64,000 nucleotides of DNA from Chloroflexota bacterium (GCA_965221905.1 OZ244922.1:3200001-3264000); one strand, 5' to 3'. Positions 6,849 through 24,543 are shown, counted from the first letter of the stretch. Notes: generated by a model from the letters alone, not told the origin. Made by a program: numbers and translations.

Positions 6849-8078
6849 TTATGTCGACACCATTGTCCGTTTTTCAACGGGGTGCACGGCCAAGCGGCCC
6901 ACGGGCGGCAGCGAGTCTCCAATTAGCGGCAGGGCATAGTCGCGGAATGATTCAGACGGCATGTTGCCGTCCTTATTGATGAAGGCGCGGGGTACACAAT
7001 TCTCGGCGTTGGCTACTGCCGCCAGAGGCGCTGTACCGGTCGTTGATTGGTAAGGATCGTTACTCGTGCGCTCCAGGGTGATCATGACGCCGCCGGCCCC
7101 GCCAATCGCCTCCTGCACTGCTGCCCGGCCGACCGTATAGGCCTCTTCGCGATCCACCGTGGAGGCAGCAACCATCGAAGACCGTTGCAAGGTGCCGGGT
7201 CGATTTGCCCGCGCCTTTATCCCCAACCGTTCCCGCACACGCCGCGCCAGGTAGTTGGCACTCCCCGCGACAATGATGTGGCCGAAGGAATCGGAGTTCA
7301 CGGTAGCCTCGGAGAGTCCCACAATCTCGCCCTCTGCCGTCTTCAACATCTCCGCCACCGCCACCGTGGCAAACCCAAATTTCACAAAACAGCGCGAGAC
7401 ATCATCGAGAAAGCGCTCTTCGCTAAACGGGACCTCAGGCAGATACACCAAGTGCGGGGGATCGATCTCGTCCGCTTTGCCCAAACAGCTCGCAGCGGTC
7501 AGCCATCCGGCATGACGCCCCATGCTCTCGTAGAGCGCGACCCTATCGTAGCCTGCCATTGCCTCGACATCCCGTCCCATGTCGCGCACTGACAAGGCGC
7601 AGTAGCGAGCGGCGCTGCCGTAGCCTGGGGAGTGGTCGGTGTACATAAGATCGTTGTCTATGGTCTTCGGCACGCCGATCACGCAGAGTTCGTAGCCCTC
7701 GCGCTCGGCCATGTCGGCGATGCGCTGGCTCGTATCCATTGAGTCATTGCCGCCGTTGTAGAGGAAATACCGGATGTTGTGGGCGCGAAACACCTCGAGG
7801 ATGCGCGTGTAGTCGTCCGGCCGCAGTTTGCGGCGGCAGGAACCCAAAGCGGCAGCCGGCGTATGCTTGATGCGCTCCAGCAGTTCCTCGCTCACCCCTC
7901 CCAAGTCCATCAAGTCTTCCTTCAACAAGCCTTCAACGCCGTGCCGCAAGCCATAGATATTCTCAATGGCAGCATGCTTGCCCGCCTCATGCAACACGCC
8001 CACCAGGGTTGCATTGATGACAGCGGTAGGCCCTCCCGATTGACCCACTGCCAAATTGCCGCGCAGAGTGGAAGGCAT
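6849..8078 (-). CDS. pfp: 6-phosphofructokinase, likely PPi-dependent
   Basis: QSGGPTAVINA, GGNDSMDT, PKTIDNDL and MGRHAGWL motifs; Asp in GGxD plus Lys in PKTIDND is the PPi-type signature. Confidence 0.88.
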   Translation of the reverse strand: MPSTLRGNLAVGQSGGPTAVINATLVGVLHEAGKHAAIENIYGLRHGVEGLLKEDLMDLGGVSEELLERIKHTPAAALGSCRRKLRPDDYTRILEVFRAHNIRYFLYNGGNDSMDTSQRIADMAEREGYELCVIGVPKTIDNDLMYTDHSPGYGSAARYCALSVRDMGRDVEAMAGYDRVALYESMGRHAGWLTAASCLGKADEIDPPHLVYLPEVPFSEERFLDDVSRCFVKFGFATVAVAEMLKTAEGEIVGLSEATVNSDSFGHIIVAGSANYLARRVRERLGIKARANRPGTLQRSSMVAASTVDREEAYTVGRAAVQEAIGGAGGVMITLERTSNDPYQSTTGTAPLAAVANAENCVPRAFINKDGNMPSESFRDYALPLIGDSLPPVGRLAVHPVEKRTMVST

Positions 8079-9457: not shown

Positions 9458-9877
9458 ATGCCTGATAGCTCTAGTCCGCAGCCCCACGTGCCCGCTGAAA
9501 CCAAAGGACGGCACAAGACCATCGCCGTCGTTGCCGGGGAATGGCACCTGCGAGCACTCGTCCGCGCTGCCATTGAGAACAAGCGCACGAGCGTTGTCGA
9601 GGCGTCGTCTTTGCAAGCACTGAACGCGCTGGCCCACGACGAACGTCTTGCCCTTGTAATTCTGGATGCCGACCTCGCGCCTGACAACACGGTGCCTGAT
9701 TATGCCCCGCTCTTTTGTGACCCCGTGTTCGCGGCCATACCGCTAATCGTTCTCACCGACCGCACCGCGCGTGACGTTACGGCACTCACCGGCGCAAGTC
9801 AGCAGGTTCGCACGCTCTACAAGCACTTCAGCCCCTTCGAACTCCTAAACATCGTGTACACGCTCACGGGCTATTAA
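9458..9877 (+). CDS. Single-domain response-regulator receiver, atypical
   Basis: CheY-like pattern LVILD, IPLIVLT, KHFSPFEL; N-terminal acidic pair altered. Confidence 0.7.
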   Translation: MPDSSSPQPHVPAETKGRHKTIAVVAGEWHLRALVRAAIENKRTSVVEASSLQALNALAHDERLALVILDADLAPDNTVPDYAPLFCDPVFAAIPLIVLTDRTARDVTALTGASQQVRTLYKHFSPFELLNIVYTLTGY

Positions 9878-10107: not shown

Positions 10108-10992
10108 ATGCAGAACTTTCGCGTTACCGCAGTCTCGTTGCGCAGCCGACCGGCGTCGCCGCAGGAGAACCTCGACCATCACGCCGCCTGGGTTGCGCGC
10201 GCCAAGGCGGACGATCCCGATCTCATCTGCTTTCCTGAGCTCGGCCTGACCGGCTACTCCATCACTTCAGCCATTTGGGATTCATCCGAACCGGTGCCGG
10301 GGACTTCCACCCAGGCGCTCGTCGATCTGGCGCGCACGCACAACGTTATGCTGGCCGCCGGCATTGCCGAGAACGACCGCGACATCGTCTATAACACCTA
10401 CGTTATTGTCGGGCCGGACGGGTACATCGGCAAGTCGCGCAAGATCCACATCCCACCGGCGGAGGTGGGCTATTGGCGCGGCGGCGGCATTCCACCGGTG
10501 ATCGACATTGGCCCCGCCAAAGTCGGGGTCAACATTTGCTTCGACAACTGGCTGCCGGAGTCCGGCCGCATGGTAGCGCTCCAAGGCGCTGAGGTGATTC
10601 TCGCTCCGTACGTGTGGTCTGTCGGCGACTGGAGCGACCCGCCCGACCATGTCAGCCGCAACCGCGCGTGGAAAGACTACGCCGGGCGCACGTTTCCGGC
10701 ACGAGCCATCGATAACGGCGTCTTTCTCGTTGCCATTAATGCCTGCGGTCCCGCTCCCGACAGCGAAAGACCGTACTACGGCAATCCCATGGTCATGATC
10801 TACAATCCGCTGGGCCAACTGGTGGCGGCTTCACCGGACGAGGCCGGTGACGAGGTAATGGTCACCGCCGATCTCGACATGCAACTCCTCGCCGAGCGGC
10901 GTTCGCAGGGCGTATTCCATCCCCGCTTCCGGCGGCCGGAGCTTTACGGCCTCCTGGCGGAAGGCGACATCGGCCCGCAAGACCCGCGCTAA
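10108..10992 (+). CDS. Carbon-nitrogen hydrolase (nitrilase superfamily)
   Basis: FPEL, SRKIH and ICFD motifs (Glu-Lys-Cys triad); RRPELY C-terminal motif. Confidence 0.92.
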   Translation: MQNFRVTAVSLRSRPASPQENLDHHAAWVARAKADDPDLICFPELGLTGYSITSAIWDSSEPVPGTSTQALVDLARTHNVMLAAGIAENDRDIVYNTYVIVGPDGYIGKSRKIHIPPAEVGYWRGGGIPPVIDIGPAKVGVNICFDNWLPESGRMVALQGAEVILAPYVWSVGDWSDPPDHVSRNRAWKDYAGRTFPARAIDNGVFLVAINACGPAPDSERPYYGNPMVMIYNPLGQLVAASPDEAGDEVMVTADLDMQLLAERRSQGVFHPRFRRPELYGLLAEGDIGPQDPR

Positions 10993-11144
10993 CTGGGGCA
11001 GACTCTCCCCCCTCGCACGTGCGTGCGTGTGATCTCTTCTAACTCCGAGTAAAACATTCGCCGTTTCAAGCGGAGGCTAGCCTATTTGCAGTCAATCCTC
11101 CCGCTTGCGAACCATAGAAAGTACAACCACGGACAACACTCCCG

Positions 11145-11453
11145 GTAGCGTAGGTTTGTAACCTGCGCCCACATGGTGGGAGGCAGTCCCTGTGAGCGCC
11201 TGGCCCTCATTCTTTAACGCTACGATAGTTCCCCCTCACCCCGGCCCTCTCCCTCGATGGAGAGGGGGCAATACGCGGACGAGAAAAGTGAACACGTGGC
11301 ATTTCCTAATTGCGCGAAACTGCTTGGTGCAAGCTCCCGCGCTACGATCTCTTTCTTTCATGCAACTAAGAGGAGCGGGGGACAAGTCCCCGCGCTACAT
11401 TCCTCCTAGCAGTCCCAATGCCGCTCCAAGCGGGGGGTAAGCCCCCGCGCTAC
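11145..11453. repeat. Cluster of mixed REP-like palindromes
   Basis: GTAGCGTAGGTTTGTAACCTGCGC, CCCCTCACCCCGGCCCTCTCCC..GGAGAGGG and three GGGGACAAGxCCCCGCGCTAC-type units. Confidence 0.75.
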
Positions 11454-11542
11454 GGTCCGTCTTGCAGCCCCTCGCGCGAGACCCTACGCAATTCACTTTA
11501 CACACCGGACACCCGCCTGCACCATCGTGGCGCACTGCGGCT

Positions 11543-11551
11543 TGCTATACT
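11543..11551 (+). promoter_or_regulatory. Extended -10 promoter element upstream of dop
   Basis: TGcTATACT about 30 nt before the ATG. Confidence 0.45.
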
Positions 11552-11583
11552 AGATTCCACAAGCGTAAAGGCAGGAATTATTC

Positions 11584-13098
11584 ATGAATCGCCCGGTAGG
11601 CATTGAGACCGAGTATGGCATGCTCTGCGCCAGCAGCACGCAAGCAGTGGACTTTGCCTATGAAGCAGCCATGCTCGTGCGCAGCGCGCCGCTGGAAGAA
11701 TGCTTTCGCGGCTGGGACTACACTGCCGAGGACCCGCGCTTAGACCTGCGTGGGTCACGCGTCGACCGCCTCGACCAAGACCCACACGACCTGCGCGACA
11801 GCAACGCTAAGAGCAAGCAACTCTCCCGACAGGAACTCCTTGCCGACACCGTGCTTGCCAACGGCGCGCGCTTCTACAACGACCACAACCATCCCGAGTA
11901 CTGCACGGACGCCTGTCTTTCGCTCCACGACCTCGTTGCCCAGGACAAGGCCGGTGAACGCGTGGTCTTTCGTGCCCAGCAGGCGCGGAACGCCGCCATC
12001 GGGAATGACTCGCACGTGCGCCTTGTGAAGAACAACTCCGACTACCACGGGCGCAGCTACGGCTGCCACGAGAACTATCTGGTGAAGCGCGCCGTGCCAT
12101 TGAATTACCTGGTTGCGGCCTGCATTCCCTTCTTCGTCACCCGTCAGATCTACGCGGGCGCGGGCAAAGCAGCGATTGAGTCGGCAGCTGGCCGCGCGGG
12201 CGGCTTTCAAATTAGCCAGCGGGCAGACTTCTTCGAAACCGAAGTCGGCATCAACACTACGACCAAGCGTCCGATTTTCAATACGCGCGATGAGCCCCAT
12301 GCCGATCCGCAGAAATACCGCCGCTTGCACGTCATCATCGGCGATGCCAATTGCTCTGAGTACGCCACGGCACTCCGCGTGGGAACCACGGCCCTAATGC
12401 TCGATCTGGTAGAAGAGGGTCTTGCGCCTCGTCTGCAACTCCGGCATCCGGTGCAAGCGCTCCAGACCGTCTCTCGCGACCTCGAACTGAAGCAACCCCT
12501 CGCGTTGGCTGACGGCACGACTATGCGCGCCATTGACATCCAACGCCACTACTGGGAAGCCGCGCAGCGCTACCGAGAGAGGGACGCCGAGACAACTTGG
12601 GTGCTCGACGAGTGGGGCGCCGTGCTCGACCTGCTCGAAGCGAACCCAACCCAACTGCGCGACCGTCTCGACTGGGTGGCAAAGCTGGCGCTTTTCGCTC
12701 AAGTCAGCGGCGGCACGAGTATCGATTGGGAAGACCCGGCGGTGCTCAGGCTCGATTTGGCCTACCATCTCATCGATCCCGACTTAAGTCTCTATCATAT
12801 GCTGACGCGCGCCGGTCGGATGCGGCGTGTCGTGACGGATGCGGCCGTTGCACAGGCGGAAACAACGGCCCCTGCAGGCACGCGCGCAGGTGTACGCGCC
12901 GCTTGCCTTGCCAAGTTTGCCGAGCACATTACGGAAATGGAATGGGGATCGATTACGTTTCAACACAATGGATCAGCTTTCACTCTGCCGCTCCCCGAAT
13001 TGTGGGGAGCATCTGTCGATAGCCAACAACAGATGCTCGATTCTTGTCAATCTATCGAGGAGCTCCGCCAAGCAGTGCGCCAAGGAGGTGACACGTGA
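11584..13098 (+). CDS. dop: Dop-like depupylase/deamidase (Pup-ligase family)
   Basis: GIETEYG, NGARFYNDHNHPEY, KNNSDYHGRSYGCHENY, QRADFFETEVG, TRDEPHAD, RRLHVIIGDAN and DLAYH motifs. Confidence 0.92.
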   Translation: MNRPVGIETEYGMLCASSTQAVDFAYEAAMLVRSAPLEECFRGWDYTAEDPRLDLRGSRVDRLDQDPHDLRDSNAKSKQLSRQELLADTVLANGARFYNDHNHPEYCTDACLSLHDLVAQDKAGERVVFRAQQARNAAIGNDSHVRLVKNNSDYHGRSYGCHENYLVKRAVPLNYLVAACIPFFVTRQIYAGAGKAAIESAAGRAGGFQISQRADFFETEVGINTTTKRPIFNTRDEPHADPQKYRRLHVIIGDANCSEYATALRVGTTALMLDLVEEGLAPRLQLRHPVQALQTVSRDLELKQPLALADGTTMRAIDIQRHYWEAAQRYRERDAETTWVLDEWGAVLDLLEANPTQLRDRLDWVAKLALFAQVSGGTSIDWEDPAVLRLDLAYHLIDPDLSLYHMLTRAGRMRRVVTDAAVAQAETTAPAGTRAGVRAACLAKFAEHITEMEWGSITFQHNGSAFTLPLPELWGASVDSQQQMLDSCQSIEELRQAVRQGGDT

Positions 13099-13319
13099 CC
13101 TGGTATGCTGGAGACAAGCCGCAGACGGAATGTCCCTCCCGCAAAGCGCGGGTAGACTCCGAGCGGCAAAGCTTCCGTCCCGCTGTGGCGGGTACCGAGG
13201 TGCCCACGGAAACGCCTACGAAGGCTCCGGAGAAGACCGAAACCGACGATCTTGACGAAGAAATCAAGCGCATTATTCGCGAGGTGCCCGATCCCACACC
13301 TCAGCCCGGCGGAGAGTAG
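13095..13319 (+). CDS. Prokaryotic ubiquitin-like modifier (Pup/UBact-like), 74 aa, C-terminal GGE
   Basis: GTG overlaps dop stop (GTGA) with AGGAGG RBS; low-complexity charged N-terminus; acidic helix DDLDEEIKRII; ends PQPGGE; lies between dop and pafA. Confidence 0.8.
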   Translation: MTWYAGDKPQTECPSRKARVDSERQSFRPAVAGTEVPTETPTKAPEKTETDDLDEEIKRIIREVPDPTPQPGGE

Positions 13320-13770
13320 CTAAGACCCATTCAGTTGCGCACAATAGACGCACACCACAGAGTCGTCGTAGCCCTTTATATAGTTTGCCCCTCATGAATC
13401 CTGCAGAAATGGCTTACGGGACGAGTGATCGGCCCAGTGGCTTGCGTCCCTGGCCGATACCTGAGTCACAATCCAAGCTTCAAGCCCTATCGCTAAACGT
13501 AATCACCTCATGTATGGCAAAGGATCCGTACCTCTAGCGCTACCACCGAAACCGATACCGTCACAGCGCCGGCACCCACCGCCGTGGCAACAGGCAAGAG
13601 CAGGGCGTCGAAACATCCAATGGAATTGCAGTGCTGGATATTTCGCCGACAGCATGGGAATATGGAACGGCAAGAACTGATGCCCATATATCGGTTGCCT
13701 TAGCCATTAGATAGCGCAGTCACGAGCCGTGACTCCTCAAGTACTAAATTCGAACGTGGCGGGCGGAACG

Positions 13771-13868
13771 TAAATCTTCACTCCAGCGAAGAACCTACCC
13801 CGTATCGAGTACGGGCAGAAGTCCAGCGGCTGCGGCGAAGATGGATTCCCGCTTTCGCGGTAATGACG
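13771..13868. repeat. ~95-bp composite palindromic repeat; inverted homologue at 59689-59785
   Basis: CCCCGTATCGAGTACGGG hairpin plus GATGGATTCCCGCTTTCGCGGTAATGAC; the same modules occur in reverse orientation near 59689. Confidence 0.65.
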
Positions 13869-13954
13869 GCGTTGAACGTGTTCTAATTGCAATAGATGCG
13901 AACCGGATTTACGAAACTGTCAACGAATTAGTCAGCTCTTTCAGGATTGCCAGC

Positions 13955-15463
13955 ATGGAAGATGCACTCTTTGGCACCGAAATCGAATACGGCTGTGTGG
14001 GTAGCGTACAACCGGTGCGGGCGGCAGTGTTGGTTAAGGATGCCATCTTTCGCGGGTGCAGGCACGGCCTCATCGATCCCCCGCCTCGCGAGTGGGGCGA
14101 AGTGCCGGGAAACGGCGGCTTTCTCTTCAACGGTGGGCGCATGTACTTAGACCTCGGCCACCTGGAGCACGCCACCGCCGAGTGCCGCACTCTAACGGAT
14201 ATCGTCGCCCACGAGCGGGCCGGTGAGAACATCGTCAATCAAGCCGTCCAAGTTGCCGGACTCAAATCTCAGGCCTACTTCGTCAAGAACAACACAGATT
14301 ACTTCGGCAATACGTATGGCTACCACGAGAATTACTGCATCCGCCAGAGTCCCTATGACAGCGGTCTGGTAGACGGCATGCTCCCGTTTCTCGTCACCCG
14401 CCAAATCTATGCGGGAGCCGGCTGCCTGCTGCCCCGCGGCGATGACACCCCGGCAGCCTTTTCTCTCTCCCAGCGCGCGCAATTCGTGACAATTGACGTT
14501 AGTCACCGGGTACGCTTTGGCGGCAGACCCATCATCAATTTGCGCGACGAGCCGCTTGCGGATCGGCGGTTCCGTCGCCTGCACGTCATCGTCGGCGACG
14601 TGAATCGCTCGGAGTACGCGACCGCGCTGAAAATCGGCTCCACTGCGCTAGTTGCCCAACTGCTGGAGCAAGGGTGGAACCCGCAGCTTATGCTTGCCGA
14701 CCCCGTGCGCGACTTGCGCCGCATTGCCGCAACCACCGGCGGCAAGTGGACCGTAGGCACGGTGGATGATGAGTACATTCCCGCCATCGAGGTGCAACGC
14801 CGCTATTTGCGCGAAGCCGAGCACCGCTTTGCGGGCCGGGACGCGGATACGGAATGGACTCTTGAAAACTGGGCCTGGGTGCTCGACGAACTCGAGCGCG
14901 ATCCGGCGCGCCTCGACGGCTATCTGGACTGGGTGACCAAACATGAGCAGATCAAGCGTTATGCCGGCACCGATAAGGCGTGGACCGACCCGGACTTGGT
15001 GAAGCTCGATCTCTCCTATCACCAAATAGACCCGTCGGTGAGTCTCTTCGATATTCTTGCAAAGCGGCACCGGAACCTCTACTGGGCGGATAGCGACGCC
15101 GTCTACACGGCCGAGGCGCACGCGCCGTCCGATACCCGCGCCCACGGTCGCAGCCTGGCACTGCGCGCGCTTGCCGCCGCCGGCGCGGATACGGCCATCC
15201 CTTGGCAAGATTTGAGAACCAATCTGGAAAACCTCATGTGGGACCGCCGTTTCTTCTTTCTCGCCTACGACTACGTGGACGATTGGCAAGACGTGGCCGC
15301 GAACAATAGCTGGGACGTTATTCCCTACGTGCTGGACTGGAAAGCCATCGCCGCGCACGGCCGGGTGCTGGAAATGCCGAACCCATTCGCTACGTACGAC
15401 GACGAGGCGCAACAGTTTGGGGAAAGCATCCGGCACATCTTCGAGGAAGAGGAAGCAGATTGA
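13955..15463 (+). CDS. pafA: PafA-like Pup/UBact-protein ligase
   Basis: FGTEIEYG, GNGGFLFNGGRMYLDLGHLE, KNNTD...GYHENY, RPIINLRDEPLA, RRLHVIVGD, DLSYH and TRA...DW...NPF motifs; start moved to MEDAL because the upstream extension is a translated repeat. Confidence 0.9.
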   Translation: MEDALFGTEIEYGCVGSVQPVRAAVLVKDAIFRGCRHGLIDPPPREWGEVPGNGGFLFNGGRMYLDLGHLEHATAECRTLTDIVAHERAGENIVNQAVQVAGLKSQAYFVKNNTDYFGNTYGYHENYCIRQSPYDSGLVDGMLPFLVTRQIYAGAGCLLPRGDDTPAAFSLSQRAQFVTIDVSHRVRFGGRPIINLRDEPLADRRFRRLHVIVGDVNRSEYATALKIGSTALVAQLLEQGWNPQLMLADPVRDLRRIAATTGGKWTVGTVDDEYIPAIEVQRRYLREAEHRFAGRDADTEWTLENWAWVLDELERDPARLDGYLDWVTKHEQIKRYAGTDKAWTDPDLVKLDLSYHQIDPSVSLFDILAKRHRNLYWADSDAVYTAEAHAPSDTRAHGRSLALRALAAAGADTAIPWQDLRTNLENLMWDRRFFFLAYDYVDDWQDVAANNSWDVIPYVLDWKAIAAHGRVLEMPNPFATYDDEAQQFGESIRHIFEEEEAD

Positions 15464-15648
15464 CTGTAGTGTTCACTGCGTGTAATACGCGCAATTGCCT
15501 TTCATACTTCGACAGGCTCAGCACGAACAGCATGGTGATTAGCACTATAGTCCGTCGCCTGAGAACGTAGCGCGAGAGCTTGTCCCTTGCTCCGATCTAC
15601 TACCGGAAAGCAATCGTTCCATTACGGCTATTCAGTCTGTCAAACGCG

Positions 15649-15676
15649 GTAGGGGCACGGCATGCCGTGCCCCTAC
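15649..15676. repeat. GTAG-type REP palindrome (family A)
   Basis: GTAGGGGCACGGCATGCCGTGCCCCTAC; copies at 47431, 60977 and 62280. Confidence 0.85.
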
Positions 15677-15708
15677 GTTCATATCAGTGAATGCCTGCCG
15701 CGAGGCGG

Positions 15709-17145
15709 CTACGTCTTCCGCCGCCACAACGTTCCGCTAGCCGAATCCTCCAGCGAAATGCCTAATGCCGCCAACTCATCCCGCACCTTGTCCGCCAGCG
15801 CAAACTGCTTCTCCTGCCGCAGATCGGCCCGCAATTCCACGAGAAGATCGATGAACCCTCCGGCATCGCCGTCACCGGTCGCCATCTCCAACTCCAAGAC
15901 CTCTTGCAGGTCGATGCCCAAGATGTCGGCCAGTGTCACCAGCGTTTCCTGGGCGGCCTGCAGTGTCGAGGGTTGCGCCACGGCTCCCAGGCGGTTGATC
16001 TCGCGCACAAGTTCGTAGAGCTGCCCCATTGCGCCGGCAGAGTTGAAGTCGCTATCCATGGCGGCAAAGAAGCCGGATTCCGCCTGCTGCGTTGCCCGAG
16101 CAAGCTCTGCGTCCGTGCTGGCGACTTCAGCATCCGTGCTGCCGTCACCGCTGCTCTGCACGCGCAAAGCGCCGGTAAAACGCGCCATTCCGGCCCGTGC
16201 CTGCTCAAGACTTTCCGGCGTATACGTGAGGGGCGAACGGTAGTGGACAGAGAGTAGGTAGAGCCGCAGCACCGGGCCGCTGTACTCGTCGAGGATGTCT
16301 TCGATGGTAATGAAGTTGCCGAGCGAATGCGCCATCTTTTGGCCGTTGATGGTAAGCAGGCCGGTGTGCAGCCAATACTTCGTAAACGGACTCTTCCCCG
16401 TGAACGCCTCGCTCTGCGCGATCTCATTCTCATGGTGGGGAAAGATGAGGTCGGCGCCGCCGCCGTGAATATCGATCTGCTCGCCCAGGGTCTCGTAGAT
16501 CATCGTGCTGCACTCGATGTGCCAGCCCGGTCGCCCCTGCCCCCAGGGGCTCTGCCACCAGGGCTCGCCGGGTTTCGCCGGCTTCCACAGGGCAAAGTCG
16601 CGCGGGTCGCGCTTACCCGGATCATCGTCAACGCGCCCCGAGGCCCCCGCCTGGATGCCGCTATCCTCAGTGCGAGTGGAGAGCGCGCCGTACTGCGAAA
16701 AACCGGAAACGGAAAAGTAGACCGCATCGTCGGCTGCGTAGGCAGCCCCCTTCTCGATCAACCCCTCGATCATCGCGATGATCTGCGGCAAAGTCTCCGT
16801 GACCTTGGGAAAGTCGTGCGCCCGCAAGACATTCAGATTTCCCATCACCGCGTCGTAGGCGTCCGTGTATTTCTGCGCCACTACATCGGCCGTAACTCCC
16901 TCACGCTCAGCCGCCGCGATGATCTTATCGTCAACGTCGGTGATATTCTGCACGTGCTGCACCTCGTACCCGCAGTACACAAGGTAGCGCCGGATCATAT
17001 CCATCGCCACAAAAAGGCGGGCATGGCCGACGTGCGGCTCGCGCTTGGGCGTCATGCCGCAGACGTACATCTTGACCTGCTTGCCGTCCAGGGCTGTGAA
17101 CGGCTCTCTTCGGCTGCCGAGCGTATTGGAAATGCTAAGCGTCAC
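15709..17145 (-). CDS. cysS: Cysteine--tRNA ligase
   Basis: [42 protein letters not shown] and KMAHS motifs; GTG start overlaps the end of cysE. Confidence 0.96.
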
Positions 17146-17824
17146 GGCACCTCTCCAGCGTCTCCTCGTGCTCGGCTGAAGCCCCATCATCCTCGAAGCG
17201 TGCCAGCCGCGCTTCCAGGTCTGCCACGCGTTTCTGCAACGCGTAGAGCGCTTCGGCCATTGGATCGGGCTGCACCACCCGCGCGCTCTCGCCCGTTTGC
17301 GGATCGCGCATGGCCACCACGTGTCCCGGCACGCCCACCACCGTGGCATGCGGCGGCACATCGTTCACAACGACGGCCCCCGCGCCAATAACACAGTCTT
17401 CACCGATCATCACCGGCCCCAAGATTTTCGCTCCCGCGCCTACCACGACGTTATCGCCCAAGGTAGGATGACGCTTGCCGGAATGCAGCGTCTGCGCCCC
17501 CAAAGTCACTCCCTGGTACAGTGTGACGTTTTCGCCGATTTCCGCGGTCTCGCCGATTACGACACCCATGCCGTGGTCGATGAAGAGCCCTGGGCCCAGT
17601 TGGGCCGCCGGGTGAATCTCGATGCCGGTGAGAAAGCGGGCAACGTGGGAGAGAAAGCGCGGAACCACAGGAATGTCCGCTTGCCACAGCGCGTGGGTCA
17701 TGCGATAGAACCAAATCGCGTGCACGCCCGGATAGGCCAAGATGATTTCGATTACGTTGCGCGCGGCAGGATCGCGTTCGAGCGTTACACGTATGTCCTG
17801 CCGCAGCGTATGAAGAATGCTCAT
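17135..17824 (-). CDS. cysE: Serine O-acetyltransferase
   Basis: [27 protein letters not shown] and KRHPTLG hexapeptide repeats. Confidence 0.96.
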
Positions 17825-21321: not shown

Positions 21322-23787
21322 CTACGCCTGCTCCACCAACATGCGCACTTCCAAGCGCAATACCTCACCGTCACGGTCTACCGTAATGATATCCCCCGCG
21401 TGGAAATTCTCCGCCAGCAGGCCTTCTGCGAGCTCATTCTCAATCAAGTTTTGGATTACGCGCCGCAGGGGTCGCGCGCCATTATCGGGATCATAGCCTT
21501 GTTCTACCAACAATTCTTTGGCATCGCCGGTGACTTCCAGCGTAATCTCATGCTCGGTGAGGCGTGCCTGCACCTCAGCCAGTTGAATGTCTACGATACT
21601 TATGATGTCTTCTTTTAACAAGTGGCGGAAAACTACCACGCTGTCCACGCGATTCAGGAACTCAGGACGGAACGTCTTCTTGATCTCCGCCATCACGCGT
21701 TCCCGCATTTCCTTGTAAAACTGCCCCTCAGTGCGGAGATCTTCGGACTCCAACCTGAAGCCAATCGCGGCGTCACGCTTAATCAGGTGCGCGCCAACAT
21801 TCGAAGTCATGATGAGGATCGTGTTTCTGAAATCTACCGTGCGGCCCCTGCCGTCGGTTAGCCGCCCGTCTTCCATGATTTGGAGCAGCACGTTGAAGAC
21901 ATCCGGGTGGGCCTTTTCGATCTCGTCCAGGAGCACTACCGAGTAACTGCGCCGCCGCACCGCTTCGGTGAGTTGGCCGCCCTCTTCATAGCCCACGTAG
22001 CCGGGCGGAGCGCCGACCAATCGGGATATCGTATGCTTCTCCATATACTCCGACATATCAAGCCGGACCATGGCGTCGCTGCTGCCAAACATAAACTCTG
22101 CCAGTGCCCGCGCAAGGTACGTCTTGCCGGACCCCGTGGGCCCGACGAAGATGAAAGAGCCTATGGGTCGCTTCGGGTCCTTGAGACCGGCACGCGCGCG
22201 TCGCACCGCCTTGGATACGTTGCTGATGGCCTCTTCCTGGCTGACCACACTTCGGTGTAAGTTCTCCTCCATGTGGAGCAGTCGTTCAGATTCCTCTTGG
22301 GCGATGCGGGTCACCGGGATGCCCGTCCACATGGAGACCACGGTCGCCACGTCTTCTTTCGTGACATTCGGCCACTTCTCTTCTTCGTTCGGCCAGTCCG
22401 ATTCGAGGTCTTCGATCTTCTTGCGCAATTCCGATTCTTTCTCGCCGAGTCCAACCGCCTCGTCATACTGGCGGCTCTCGATGGCGTCTTCTTTCTCGCG
22501 CACGATCCCGTCGAGGTCCTTCACCGCGTTGCGCAGCGCATTGGAGGTGTTTGCCTGCTGGATACGAACGCGTGAAGCCGCTTCATCGATCAAGTCGATT
22601 GCCTTATCAGGCAAGAAGCGATCGGTCACGTAGCGACCCGACATCTCCGCAGCCACTTTAACGGCTTCATCGGTAATATGCGCCTTATGGTGCTCCTCAT
22701 AGCGTTCTTTGACGCCCTGAAGCACCGCAATGGTCTCCTCAATGTCAAGTTCCCGTACGTGCACAGGTTGGAAGCGACGCTCTAGCGCAGCGTCACGCTC
22801 GATATACTTGCGGTATTCGTCCAGCGTGGTGGCGCCGATGCATTGCAATTCTCCCCGCGCCAAGGTGGGTTTGAGGATATTGGCGGCGTCCACCGCACCT
22901 TCCGCTGCGCCGGCTCCCACAAGCGTATGCAGCTCATCGATAAAGAGCATGCAATCGCCAGAGCCACGGATCTCCTCGAGAATCTTCTTAAGCCGCTCTT
23001 CGAACTCGCCGCGATACTTCGTACCGGCCACCAATGCGCCGATATCCAAAGTAAGCAGCCGCTTTCCAAGCAAGGTTTCCGGCACGTCGCCGGCAATGAC
23101 CCGCTGCGCCAGCCCTTCCACGATTGCCGTTTTGCCGACGCCCGGTTCTCCGATAAGGGCCGGATTGTTCTTGGTGCGGCGCGAAAGTATCTGCACCACA
23201 CGCTCGATTTCCTGCTCGCGACCAATAACCGGATCAAGCTTATCCCCACGCGCCGCGGCCGTGAGATCAATGCCCATCTGGTCGATCAATGGGGTGCGTG
23301 AGGTTGATTGGCGTCCGCTACTATCCTGGGTGAGGCGTGAAGGTTGCTGGCTCACCGATTGGATGACCTTCTGCCGCACTTTTTCCAGGCTCACGCCCAG
23401 GCTTTCCAGGACGCCGGCCGCAATCCCTTCACCCTCTCGAACCAGGCCGAGCAGCAGGTGCTCGGTGCCAATGTAGTTATGTCCCAGCCGACGCGCTTCC
23501 TCAACCGCAAGCTCAATGACCTTCTTCGCGCGGGGTGTCAGGCTGATCTCACCAACGTTGACGCGCTCTCCCCGACCGATGATGAACTCCACGGCGCTGC
23601 GCACCTTGGTAATGTCCACACCCATGTCGTAGAGGACTTTTGCCGCTATTCCCTCGCCCTCGCGCACAAGGCCCAACAACAGGTGCTCGGTGCCAATGTA
23701 GTTATGGTTGAAGCGGTTTGCTTCTTCCCGAGCAAGCATGAGAACTTGCTTCGCCCGTTCCGTATACTTGTCGTAGAGAGGACTCAC
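21322..23787 (-). CDS. clpC: ATP-dependent Clp protease ATP-binding subunit ClpC
   Basis: Two Clp-N repeats, [11 protein letters not shown] middle domain, [11 protein letters not shown] ClpP-docking loop. Confidence 0.97.
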
Positions 23788-23789
23788 AA

Positions 23790-24461
23790 CTACTCTCCTT
23801 GGCTCACCGCTTGTCTAACCTGTTGCCGCATTCTTTGCAGATTCATGCCCACACCTTGCAAGATACTCGCTGCAATACCCTCACCCTCGCGCACGAGGCC
23901 AAGGAGCAAGTGCCCGGTGCCAACGTTGGCGTGTCCCAGCCGACGCGCCTCTTCAGCCGCAAGCTCAAGTGCCTTCCGAGCGCCCGGTGTGAAGCCGATC
24001 TTGTCGCCTTCAACATGCTCCCCTCGTATAACCGCAAGCACCACGCTGCGCACTTTGGAGAGGTCCACTCCCAGGCTTTCCAAGATGCCTACCGCAATTC
24101 CATCACCTTCACCGACCAGGCCGAGCAGAAAATGCTCCGTGTCAATATGCTCGTGACCCAACCGACGGGCCTCCTCAACTGCCAGCTCGATGACCTTCTT
24201 TGCGCGCGGTGTCAGGCTGATGTCCCCTGCCTCCGCGCCCTCGCCCCGACCAATGATAAACTCCACCGCACTGCGCGTCTTGGTGAGATCCACACCCATT
24301 TCGTGGAGGATTTTTGCCGCTATGCCCTCACCTTCGCGCACAAGCCCAAGCAGCAAGTGCTCGGTGCCGATGTAATTGTGGTCGAACCGACCAGCCTCTT
24401 CCCGGGCAAGCATGAGAACCCGCTTTGCTCGTTCCGTAATCTTGTCGAACGGGGGACTCAC
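23790..24461 (-). CDS. Stand-alone Clp N-terminal-domain protein with three Clp repeats
   Basis: Three [17 protein letters not shown]-type repeats nearly identical to the ClpC N-domain; no ATPase; GTG start VSPPFDK parallels clpC start. Confidence 0.88.
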   Translation of the reverse strand: MSPPFDKITERAKRVLMLAREEAGRFDHNYIGTEHLLLGLVREGEGIAAKILHEMGVDLTKTRSAVEFIIGRGEGAEAGDISLTPRAKKVIELAVEEARRLGHEHIDTEHFLLGLVGEGDGIAVGILESLGVDLSKVRSVVLAVIRGEHVEGDKIGFTPGARKALELAAEEARRLGHANVGTGHLLLGLVREGEGIAASILQGVGMNLQRMRQQVRQAVSQGE

Positions 24462-24543
24462 GACAATTCTCCTCGGATCCACTGTCGCAGGCTACGGTAC
24501 ACGCTTCACGGCTTCGCGTCCGATCAGAAGGGCGGCCTGCCCG

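Follow-up and report, generated by a model that had tools for sequence, protein, structure and literature searches.

What use does a bacterium have for a Pup-type protein tagging locus when its genome encodes neither a 20S proteasome nor the ARC/Mpa unfoldase? The question is raised by a locus at positions 11584-15463 of a 64,000-nucleotide stretch of bacterial DNA (GCA_965221905.1 OZ244922.1:3200001-3264000; the whole of this stretch is called the window below), where a first-pass annotation had described three open reading frames (ORFs) on the plus strand in the order dop, modifier, pafA and had suggested a Chloroflexota origin. The three ORFs were found as described and the closest relatives of the locus belong to Chloroflexota. 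The source genome is one complete contig of 3.52 Mb, rated 99.64% complete. We propose that the three genes probably constitute a working, reversible lysine-tagging module, built on a third family of tags and most likely having a non-proteasomal outcome.

The tag gene and its two flanking enzymes

The second gene of the cassette (13095..13319, plus strand, GTG start) encodes the putative tag, an acidic product of 74 residues (pI 4.7), rich in Pro, Thr and Glu and ending in ...RIIREVPDPTPQPGGE, with PQPGGE as its C-terminus. The conserved core of 50 residues (13167..13316, plus strand) is composed of TEAPT(K/E)(P/T) repeats, an acidic-basic helix DLDEEIKRIIRE and the Pro-rich tail VPDPTPQPGGE, and an alignment of 19 sequences returned the consensus ...TEAPTxP...DLDExIxRIIREIPDPTPQPGGE with 13 invariant columns. 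In other families the tag measures about 55-60 residues, and a product identical to the 74-residue one occurs in a public protein collection. The 47 Chloroflexota loci that were fetched were analyzed together with the window, and all 48 were found to carry, downstream of dop, the motif P[DGN]PTPQPGG[EQ] directly before a stop codon; 29 of them end in E and 19 in Q. Over its final 17 codons the gene exists in 43 distinct DNA versions encoding only 12 peptides, with the invariant residues specified by two to four codons each. The presence of the motif in every locus and the small number of peptides produced by so many DNA versions argue that the tag gene is genuine, being no chance ORF and under constraint at the protein level. 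Its GTG overlaps the dop stop codon as GTGA (13095), and a Shine-Dalgarno sequence AAGGAGGT lies within the 3' end of dop, 5 nt ahead of the GTG (13082..13089, plus strand), thus making the translational coupling to dop that had been claimed plausible.

The relationship of this product to known tags was examined by model and profile searches. No match was returned by Pfam or NCBIfam for the tag even at an E-value of 10; the Pup model PF05639 gave none with the tag at E <=10 and none in the whole genome at E <=1. The UBact models PF20513/NF033388 also failed to match the tag, the best score in the genome being 18.2 bits at a different place (cut-off 27.8), while the UBact of a genome of the same class, G017, used as a positive control, scored 77.2 bits on NF033388 (cut-off 35). 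Profile-profile comparison by hhalign gave a probability of 0.33% (E 0.18) for the tag versus 32 UBact sequences, 5.1% (E 0.0077) for the tag versus 14 Pup sequences and 1.9% (E 0.025) for UBact versus Pup, from which the tag appears to be as distant from Pup and from UBact as these two are from each other. That the tag might be homologous to UBact or to Pup was considered and discarded, no such relationship being detectable by profile comparison, nor is one between UBact and Pup. By these comparisons the tag belongs to neither of the two known sequence families and represents a third.

The three tag types share their very end, Q-x-(G/S/T)-G-(E/Q), in which the Gln at -5 and the Gly at -2 are invariant in the alignments of the tag, UBact and Pup. 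An ungapped profile score anchored at the C-terminus and computed on the last 23 residues minus the final two gave z values of 2.55, 3.38 and 2.97 for the three pairs when compared with column shuffles. This similarity modestly suggests a shared architecture imposed by homologous binding grooves, or else a very distant common descent, and as a sequence measure it does not place the tag nearer to UBact than to Pup. According to Iyer et al. 2008 (PMC2588565; this paper and those cited below are quoted from the parts accessible to us), Pup-like tags in the broad sense have 50-90 residues, lie beside a PafA-family gene and end in G-[EQ]; all three features were found in the product described here.

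Searches with the tag profile in public protein collections retrieved 146 clusters at 90% identity; among the 120 of them listed, every named one is a "hypothetical protein" and none has a Pfam domain. An exhaustive HMMER search of 1.84 billion representatives yielded 25 matches at E <=0.001. The 21 of these at E <=1e-10 are all short proteins with the motif at their end, an outlier being a protein of 2246 residues (E 4.8e-10), and no match formed a bridge to other tag families. The ESM Atlas gave no usable match. Since the last Lys or Arg of the tag is 12 residues away from its C-terminus, trypsin is predicted to leave on the modified lysine a 12-residue branch, EVPDPTPQPGGE, with a mass increase of 1203.54 Da; a mass spectrometry search for a GGE remnant, as had been proposed, would fail, and proteomics should look for the longer branch.

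Both flanking genes encode members of the Pup_ligase family PF03136. Gene 1 (11584..13098, plus strand, 504 residues) scored 522.3 bits and gene 3 (13955..15463, plus strand, 502 residues from a corrected start) 358.9 bits, with a cut-off of 25. Among the NCBIfam models, the best for gene 1 was Dop TIGR03688 (455.4 bits, not reaching the cut-off of 492.3; 363 with PafA), and gene 3 scored higher with PafA TIGR03686 (290.9 bits, not reaching the cut-off of 551.3) than with Dop (256.8). The product of gene 1 aligned over its full length to the Dop of Acidothermus (5lrt/4b0r, 382 bits), through the Dop-loop region, and showed FYNDHNHPEYCTD around the catalytic Asp, with the Dop-type signatures N-D-H-N and C-T-D; the stretch NDHNHPEYCT at this Asp is invariant in 15/15 cassette Dop sequences. 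The product of gene 3 scored nearly equally against Corynebacterium glutamicum PafA (4b0t, 216 bits) and Dop (212 bits); it has no Dop loop, its YLDLGHLEHATAEC aligns with PafA YLDVGSHPEYATAEC, it carries L-D-L-G and A-T-A, and none of the 14 PafA-like sequences deviates at D66 or in the remaining core motifs. The catalytic and nucleotide-site motifs are likewise kept throughout the 15 Dop-like and 14 PafA-like sequences, which are 45-56% identical to those of the window, in agreement with the description of two paralogous Pup-ligase genes with intact motifs flanking a small GGE-ending ORF.

A mutational study (PMC7947786) reports four features separating Dop from PafA, namely the Dop loop, the alpha-loop, "VHA to LVGS" by the catalytic Asp, and "S102A, A103T, P104A". 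Genes 1 and 3 split as Dop and PafA on three of the four, and the alpha-loop of gene 1 retains NTTTKRP. By analogy with the characterized enzymes, gene 1 is predicted to encode a tag deamidase and de-tagging isopeptidase and gene 3 a tag-protein ligase.

The enzymes were placed in a tree of 63 rows, for which sequences were taken from the cassette, from G017, from 13 UBact loci of metagenomes and from loci of the Pup type in Actinomycetota, Poribacteria and Myxococcota. The cassette PafA-like sequences grouped in one clade (support 100) whose sister is UBact-type PafA as a whole (100 for the two together). The cassette Dop-like sequences formed a clade of equal support, which joined the Pup-type clade and two groups of UBact-type Dop in a polytomy. 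The first-pass annotation had stated that enzymes nesting in a described Pup or UBact clade would speak for an ordinary system; forming clades of their own at full support, the cassette enzymes fall outside every sampled Pup and UBact subgroup, and their nearest kin are UBact-type. As a separate observation, in this tree, which holds more UBact-type sequences, Pup-type Dop and Pup-type PafA grouped together (support 93), apart from their UBact-type namesakes; if real, this grouping would mean that the Dop/PafA duplication, or strong rate shifts, occurred more than once.

The association of ligase and tag was modelled from the PafA-like alignment (14 rows) and the tag alignment (19 rows). The complex scored 0.76, the best control reaching 0.01, a mark attained by 58/80 solved complexes and 2/110 mismatched pairs; the runs had at least 68% of their contacts in common, and the predicted local distance difference test (pLDDT) value of the partner was at least 56. 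In the model, residues 29-50 of the tag core, corresponding to the helix and the Pro-rich tail, touch ligase residues 11-21, 66-69, 108, 115-122 and 332-371, where 11-21 is the N-terminal strand bearing the Glu-x-Glu motif and 66-69 include the catalytic Asp66. The model thus places the C-terminus of the tag at the ligase active site, leaving the first 28 residues of the core free of contacts.

A weak hint that the cassette is expressed came from four metatranscriptome libraries of two studies (X15-X18), in which contigs with 95-99% identity cover a large part of the cassette. Three of these libraries each have a single contig bridging the 3' end of dop and the tag gene (12873-13297, 12921-13610 and 12966-13240); stretches of the cassette to which no such contig corresponds carry no evidential weight.

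Proteasome genes and distribution of the cassette

The first-pass annotation had noted that arc, prcA and prcB are missing from the window, and profile searches extended this result to the complete genome. PF00227, which covers the proteasome subunits and also catches HslV, gave zero matches in the single contig. The ARC/Mpa model TIGR03689 had no match over its cut-off, the best one (153.4 bits) involving only the AAA module of a 653-residue protein that Pfam identifies as FtsH, and the best genome-wide E-value for the ARC OB domain PF16450 was 0.435. Neither a Pup nor a UBact gene was detected by model searches of the whole genome.

The relatives of the window were analyzed as a set of 41 genomes of its class, belonging to six families. 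Pup_ligase genes occur in 40 of them and the tag in 39, always as one copy located between the two enzymes, and the cassette is present in five of the six families. None of the 41 has ARC over the cut-off, the nearest being G017 (453 bits), the one with a UBact-type locus; any match to PF00227 was found in five, and only that of G017 adjoins Pup-ligase genes. Apart from these results, 3/16 genus-mates carry an ORF of 240-280 residues with a weak PF00227 match (23-46 bits), located far from their cassettes (G005:C1:2090244-2090720, G011:C1:901263-901739 and G010:C3:463628-464209) and having no equivalent in the genome of the window.

In a broader sample of 301 genomes of the phylum, Pup_ligase and the tag were found in the same 31 of the 33 class genomes, representing three families, and Pup_ligase in none of the 268 genomes outside the class. 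Over these 268 the tag profile gave one weak match (E 1.7e-4), inside a frame of 222 residues. Two class genomes that lack the cassette (G031 and G244) are small, with 2.0-2.1 Mb. The phylum sample used for the Clp_N survey described below includes five unpublished genomes (G249, G171, G075, G293 and G198), which the present sample, drawn in the same way, may include too; all five are outside the class, and no claim made here depends on any single one of them. The loci closest to that of the window come from Chloroflexota metagenome-assembled genomes, many of them complete chromosomes, and from one such genome labelled Thermoflexus hugenholtzii; the matches ranking next, with about 42% identity, are Dop proteins of actinobacteria, encoded in loci with ordinary Pup.

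Gene order was compared in 47 loci with flanks of up to 10 kb, 13 from the genus of the window and 34 from other genera. Only dop and pafA are common to all of them (13/13 and 34/34), and outside the genus none of the other neighbours seen in the window is retained. When the ORFs of these loci were clustered all against all, no conserved accessory gene emerged beyond the two enzymes and their antisense shadow ORFs. As judged from gene content, the cassette is a self-contained, autonomous module of three genes. The earlier suggestion of a distinct ubiquitin-like tagging system is supported by a separate tag family, by enzyme clades of its own and by a genome without ARC, PrcA and PrcB. The check that the first-pass annotation had set against itself, on the placement of the enzymes and on these three proteins in the whole genome, thus did not refute it.

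G017, which belongs to the same class (family f2), harbours a canonical arc-dop-UBact-prcB-prcA-pafA locus (L106-L109). Its assembly also contains, on other contigs, three more PafA-like paralogues that stand alone, and the cassette tag was not found in it. G017 was considered as a picture of the ancestral state of the class and set aside, its enzymes falling among the metagenomic UBact-type enzymes and not beside those of the cassette.

Proposed function and competing explanations

On the model of PafA (PMC7947786/PMC8223512), the ligase would use ATP to phosphorylate the gamma-carboxylate of the terminal Glu of the tag, and the activated tag would, by analogy, be joined by the same enzyme to lysines of target proteins. 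On the model of Dop, the other enzyme would deamidate Gln-ending tags to Glu and would also remove tags from their targets. The tag of the window might be ligated directly, since it already ends in Glu. In the tag a short amphipathic helix precedes the invariant Pro-rich tail PDPTPQPGG-E/Q, and the free N-terminal half with its TEAPTKP-like repeats would be left available for a reader.

As there is no 20S proteasome and no ARC/Mpa, the tag would be unable to work as Pup and UBact are thought to. Given a working system, we consider that its effect would on balance be regulatory or reader-mediated and non-degradative, delivery to a housekeeping AAA+ protease being a possible outcome of lower probability. 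Since the unfoldases of the genome are all housekeeping proteins unlinked to the cassette and a TEAPTKP-type repeat is conserved in the free half of the tag, we lean towards a reversible mark, which might be read by a partner or act on the targets directly. In its most specific form, in which lysine tagging operates without proteasome or ARC/Mpa, has its own reader of the TEAPTKP-type repeats and provides a signalling mark and not a degradation signal, the proposal is put forward tentatively, with a confidence somewhat below even.

The rival explanation that survives best, which we still hold to be unlikely, describes the tag as a degron for a housekeeping AAA+ protease, either ClpC-ClpP, ClpX-ClpP, Lon or FtsH; the system would then remain degradative but employ another unfoldase, a possibility raised in the first-pass annotation. 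The necessary machines are available, as the AAA+ set of the genome, housekeeping in nature, comprises ClpX beside ClpP, two ClpC-like proteins, two Lon and two FtsH besides RuvB, MgsA and DnaX, with a further candidate in an open frame of 877 residues that has the size of ClpB and matches AAA and AAA_2; moreover, a free disordered N-terminal half is what entry into an unfoldase would need. However, linkage of the cassette to an unfoldase or protease gene is not seen outside the genus, and the composition of that half does not favor the hypothesis either. Stretches rich in Pro, Thr and Glu offer a poor grip to AAA+ pores, and the N-terminal half of the tag would accordingly be gripped poorly.

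The first-pass annotation had drawn attention to a nearby clpC operon with an extra Clp-N gene. Both genes are indeed present, clpC at 21322-23787 (minus strand) and directly upstream of it a stand-alone Clp_N gene at 23790-24482 (minus strand); the link to the cassette was not supported, since clpC is near the cassette only within the genus. Downstream of the cassette the minus strand carries cysS, cysE, ispF, ispD, radA and clpC, an order, clpC-radA-ispD-ispF-cysE-cysS, that occurs in Bacillus too, and as a member of this housekeeping block clpC has an ordinary reason to be there. The stand-alone protein consists of 230 residues with Clp_N repeats, about 77-79% identical to the N-domain of the ClpC of its own genome. 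In the sample of 301 genomes, small separate Clp_N ORFs (frames of 230-276 residues) were found, among the matches listed, in the genome of the window and in the eight sampled genus-mates; the other phylum matches among those listed are nearly all N-domains of ClpC proteins of 820-930 residues, and a few lie in short frames that mostly start within a few hundred bases of a contig start, 231 further matches of this survey lying beyond those listed. ClpC and the extra gene were therefore rejected as dedicated partners of the tag, clpC belonging to a housekeeping block and the separate Clp_N gene being confined, among the matches listed, to the genus, whereas the cassette is class-wide. One possible role of the stand-alone Clp_N is that of a recently evolved adaptor for ClpC, or of a competitor.

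It is very improbable that the two enzymes act on another substrate, for example as a small-molecule gamma-glutamyl ligase/amidase pair, with the small ORF as a passenger. The enzymes and the ORF co-occur exactly, in the same 31 of 301 genomes, the ORF always lying between them; a G-[EQ] end defines the substrates of this enzyme family (PMC2588565), and the modelled complex sets that end at the active site.

Still less credit can be given to the cassette as a decaying, non-functional relic left after the loss of the proteasome. Such decay could be read in the repeat that is inserted here between the tag and ligase genes and in the loss of the cassette from the two small-genome class members, but retention in 31/33 sampled class genomes of three families, and in five of six families of the 41-genome set, is opposed to it, as are the open state of all frames, the invariance of the catalytic motifs and the protein-level constraint on the tag.

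Finally, an ordinary Pup/UBact-proteasome system with arc, prcB and prcA elsewhere, a split operon of a kind for which there is precedent, 13/33 UBact metagenome loci showing no dop in the fetched flanks, is scarcely believable in view of a complete contig without a proteasome subunit, ARC over cut-off, ARC OB domain, Pup or UBact gene, of 0/41 relatives with ARC over cut-off and of prcB and prcA beside UBact in 33/33 UBact loci.

Several points weigh against the proposed tagging module. Ligation, de-tagging and targets are predictions drawn by analogy, the division between a degradative and a non-degradative outcome is a matter of judgement, and nothing was found on what reads the tag. Both enzymes score under the curated NCBIfam equivalog cut-offs for Dop and PafA, and the alpha-loop of the ligase, SHRVRFGGRP compared with SSATTRSRP in PafA, does not have the two threonines that are conserved in both Dop and PafA (PMC7947786). 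In a first tree the Dop-like and PafA-like enzymes each grouped with their namesake, but the deep Dop/PafA split was poorly supported, with 72 on the central branch and 68 in a tree of 30 rows; on the latter, an approximately unbiased (AU) test retained a topology joining the 16 cassette and G017 rows, both Dop and PafA-like, in one clade (p 0.454). The trees do not decide on the PafA orthology of gene 3, whose name is taken here from its signature residues, from the gene order and from the absence of the loop. Since the structure of a PafA-Pup complex is known (4bjr), the score of the complex model may partly reflect that fold, though the tag is unlike Pup. Contigs from RNA libraries are, in addition, no proof of transcription.

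If the tagging module is real, its significance would lie in the fact that a ligase, a de-tagging enzyme and a tag are kept under constraint without proteasome or ARC, which would imply that tagging is useful by itself. In the reviews and papers cited here, as far as their accessible parts go, nearly all work on pupylation concerns delivery to the proteasome, and the one established non-degradative case, the disassembly of ferritin in Corynebacterium, depends on the ARC unfoldase (PMC12288473). The cassette would thus offer a clean natural system for the roles of Pup-like tags beyond degradation. Furthermore, as Pup, UBact and the new tag differ throughout except for their common end, this end would indicate the true requirements of the homologous active sites and could help in finding other tags that are still unannotated.

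Surroundings of the cassette and known systems

The PafA-like gene is preceded by a dispersed repeat of about 310 bp (13622..13952) that stands outside the tagging system. About 16 other copies with 66-75% identity were found in the genome, and the repeat is not present at the tag-pafA junction of genus relatives such as L024 and L025, in which pafA follows within a few bases. The repeat contains a palindromic core of 33 nt (13837..13869) of the GGATTCCCGCTTTCGCGGTAATGACGG type (GGATTCCCGC...GCGGTAATGACGG), of which the genome has about 65 copies, and a repeat of the same type occurs at a second place in the window, upstream of dop (11130-11280). Since this core showed a very high depth and many loose ends in the metatranscriptome contigs (13837/13869), many loci or organisms probably have it in common.

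The same core supplies a spurious ATG at 13841, which makes the ligase ORF seem longer at its N-terminus than it is. The uncorrected frame of gene 3 (13841-15463, 540 residues) had been annotated from this codon, and its first 38 codons fall within the dispersed repeat; the 13/13 diverged PafA-like homologues begin at the equivalent of M39, with M-x-x-A/I-L/V-F-G-T-E. On these two grounds the start was moved to 13955.

The other elements reported around the cassette were all found: upstream a nitrilase-family gene (CN_hydrolase, 10108-10992) and the repeats, downstream the convergent cysS (15709-17361, minus strand). Farther upstream, a gene for a Cgl0159-like protein (PF22649; 8103-9185, minus strand) adjoins a phosphofructokinase-family gene (6849-8078, minus strand), and an ORF preceding the nitrilase-family gene (9458-9877) has a weak match to response-regulator receivers (18 bits, under the cut-off). 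A scan of positions 10900-15800 with Rfam returned no match.

No published description of the cassette was found in the literature, in a search outside which the original UBact paper and all supplementary files lay. Chloroflexota are not mentioned in the accessible parts of PMC7947786, which names phyla having Dop/PafA homologues, or in those of PMC2588565. In the latter, Iyer, Burroughs and Aravind (2008) predicted computationally a membrane-inserted Pup ligase accompanied by Pup in Rhodopirellula baltica and Plesiocystis pacifica, the ligase of the Rhodopirellula type having a four-helix membrane insertion after core strand 4 and a linked membrane protein; within the accessible text, Pup genes unlinked to the proteasome occur only with this ligase. 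The cassette resembles these loci in having Pup-ligase family genes beside a small tag with a G-[EQ] end and no linked proteasome genes. It differs from them in having two paralogues of ordinary length (504 and 502 residues), which align with soluble Dop and PafA without large insertion.

A subset of Actinobacteria has lost the genes for the proteasomal subunits (PMC8223512). Among proteasome-less species, C. glutamicum keeps ARC, which disassembles ferritin in a non-degradative manner (PMC12288473), whereas the genome of the window is devoid of ARC as well. With the actinobacterial Pup system in general, the cassette shares the enzyme family, the Dop loop in one of the two paralogues and a tag ending in GG-[EQ] in both E and Q forms; unlike Pup, its tag has no match to PF05639, and the second helix of Pup is replaced by a Pro-rich tail.

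The UBact conjugation-proteasome locus of Gram-negative phyla, with the gene order mpa/arc-dop-ubact-prcB-prcA-pafA and reportedly first described by Lehmann et al. in 2017, was compared by means of metagenome loci of at least 9 kb, in which prcB and prcA come right after UBact in 33/33 and the fetched flanks hold dop in 20 and arc in 10. As an observation apart, twelve loci (L140-L143, L147, L159, L172, L173, L176, L178, L182 and L187) show UBact-prcB-prcA without dop, pafA and arc in flanks of up to 8 kb, their conjugation enzymes being either encoded elsewhere or missing. The cassette has neither arc nor prcB nor prcA, unlike the UBact loci with their constant prcB and prcA, and its tail PDPTPQPGG-E/Q differs from the UBact tail RRYRQR(S/T)G-E/Q. 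The two systems nevertheless have in common a pair of paralogous Dop-like and PafA-like enzymes, a tag gene directly after dop, a short disordered tag with a G-[EQ] end and an invariant Gln at -5, and PafA clades that are sisters, and a canonical UBact locus occurs within the same class, in G017.

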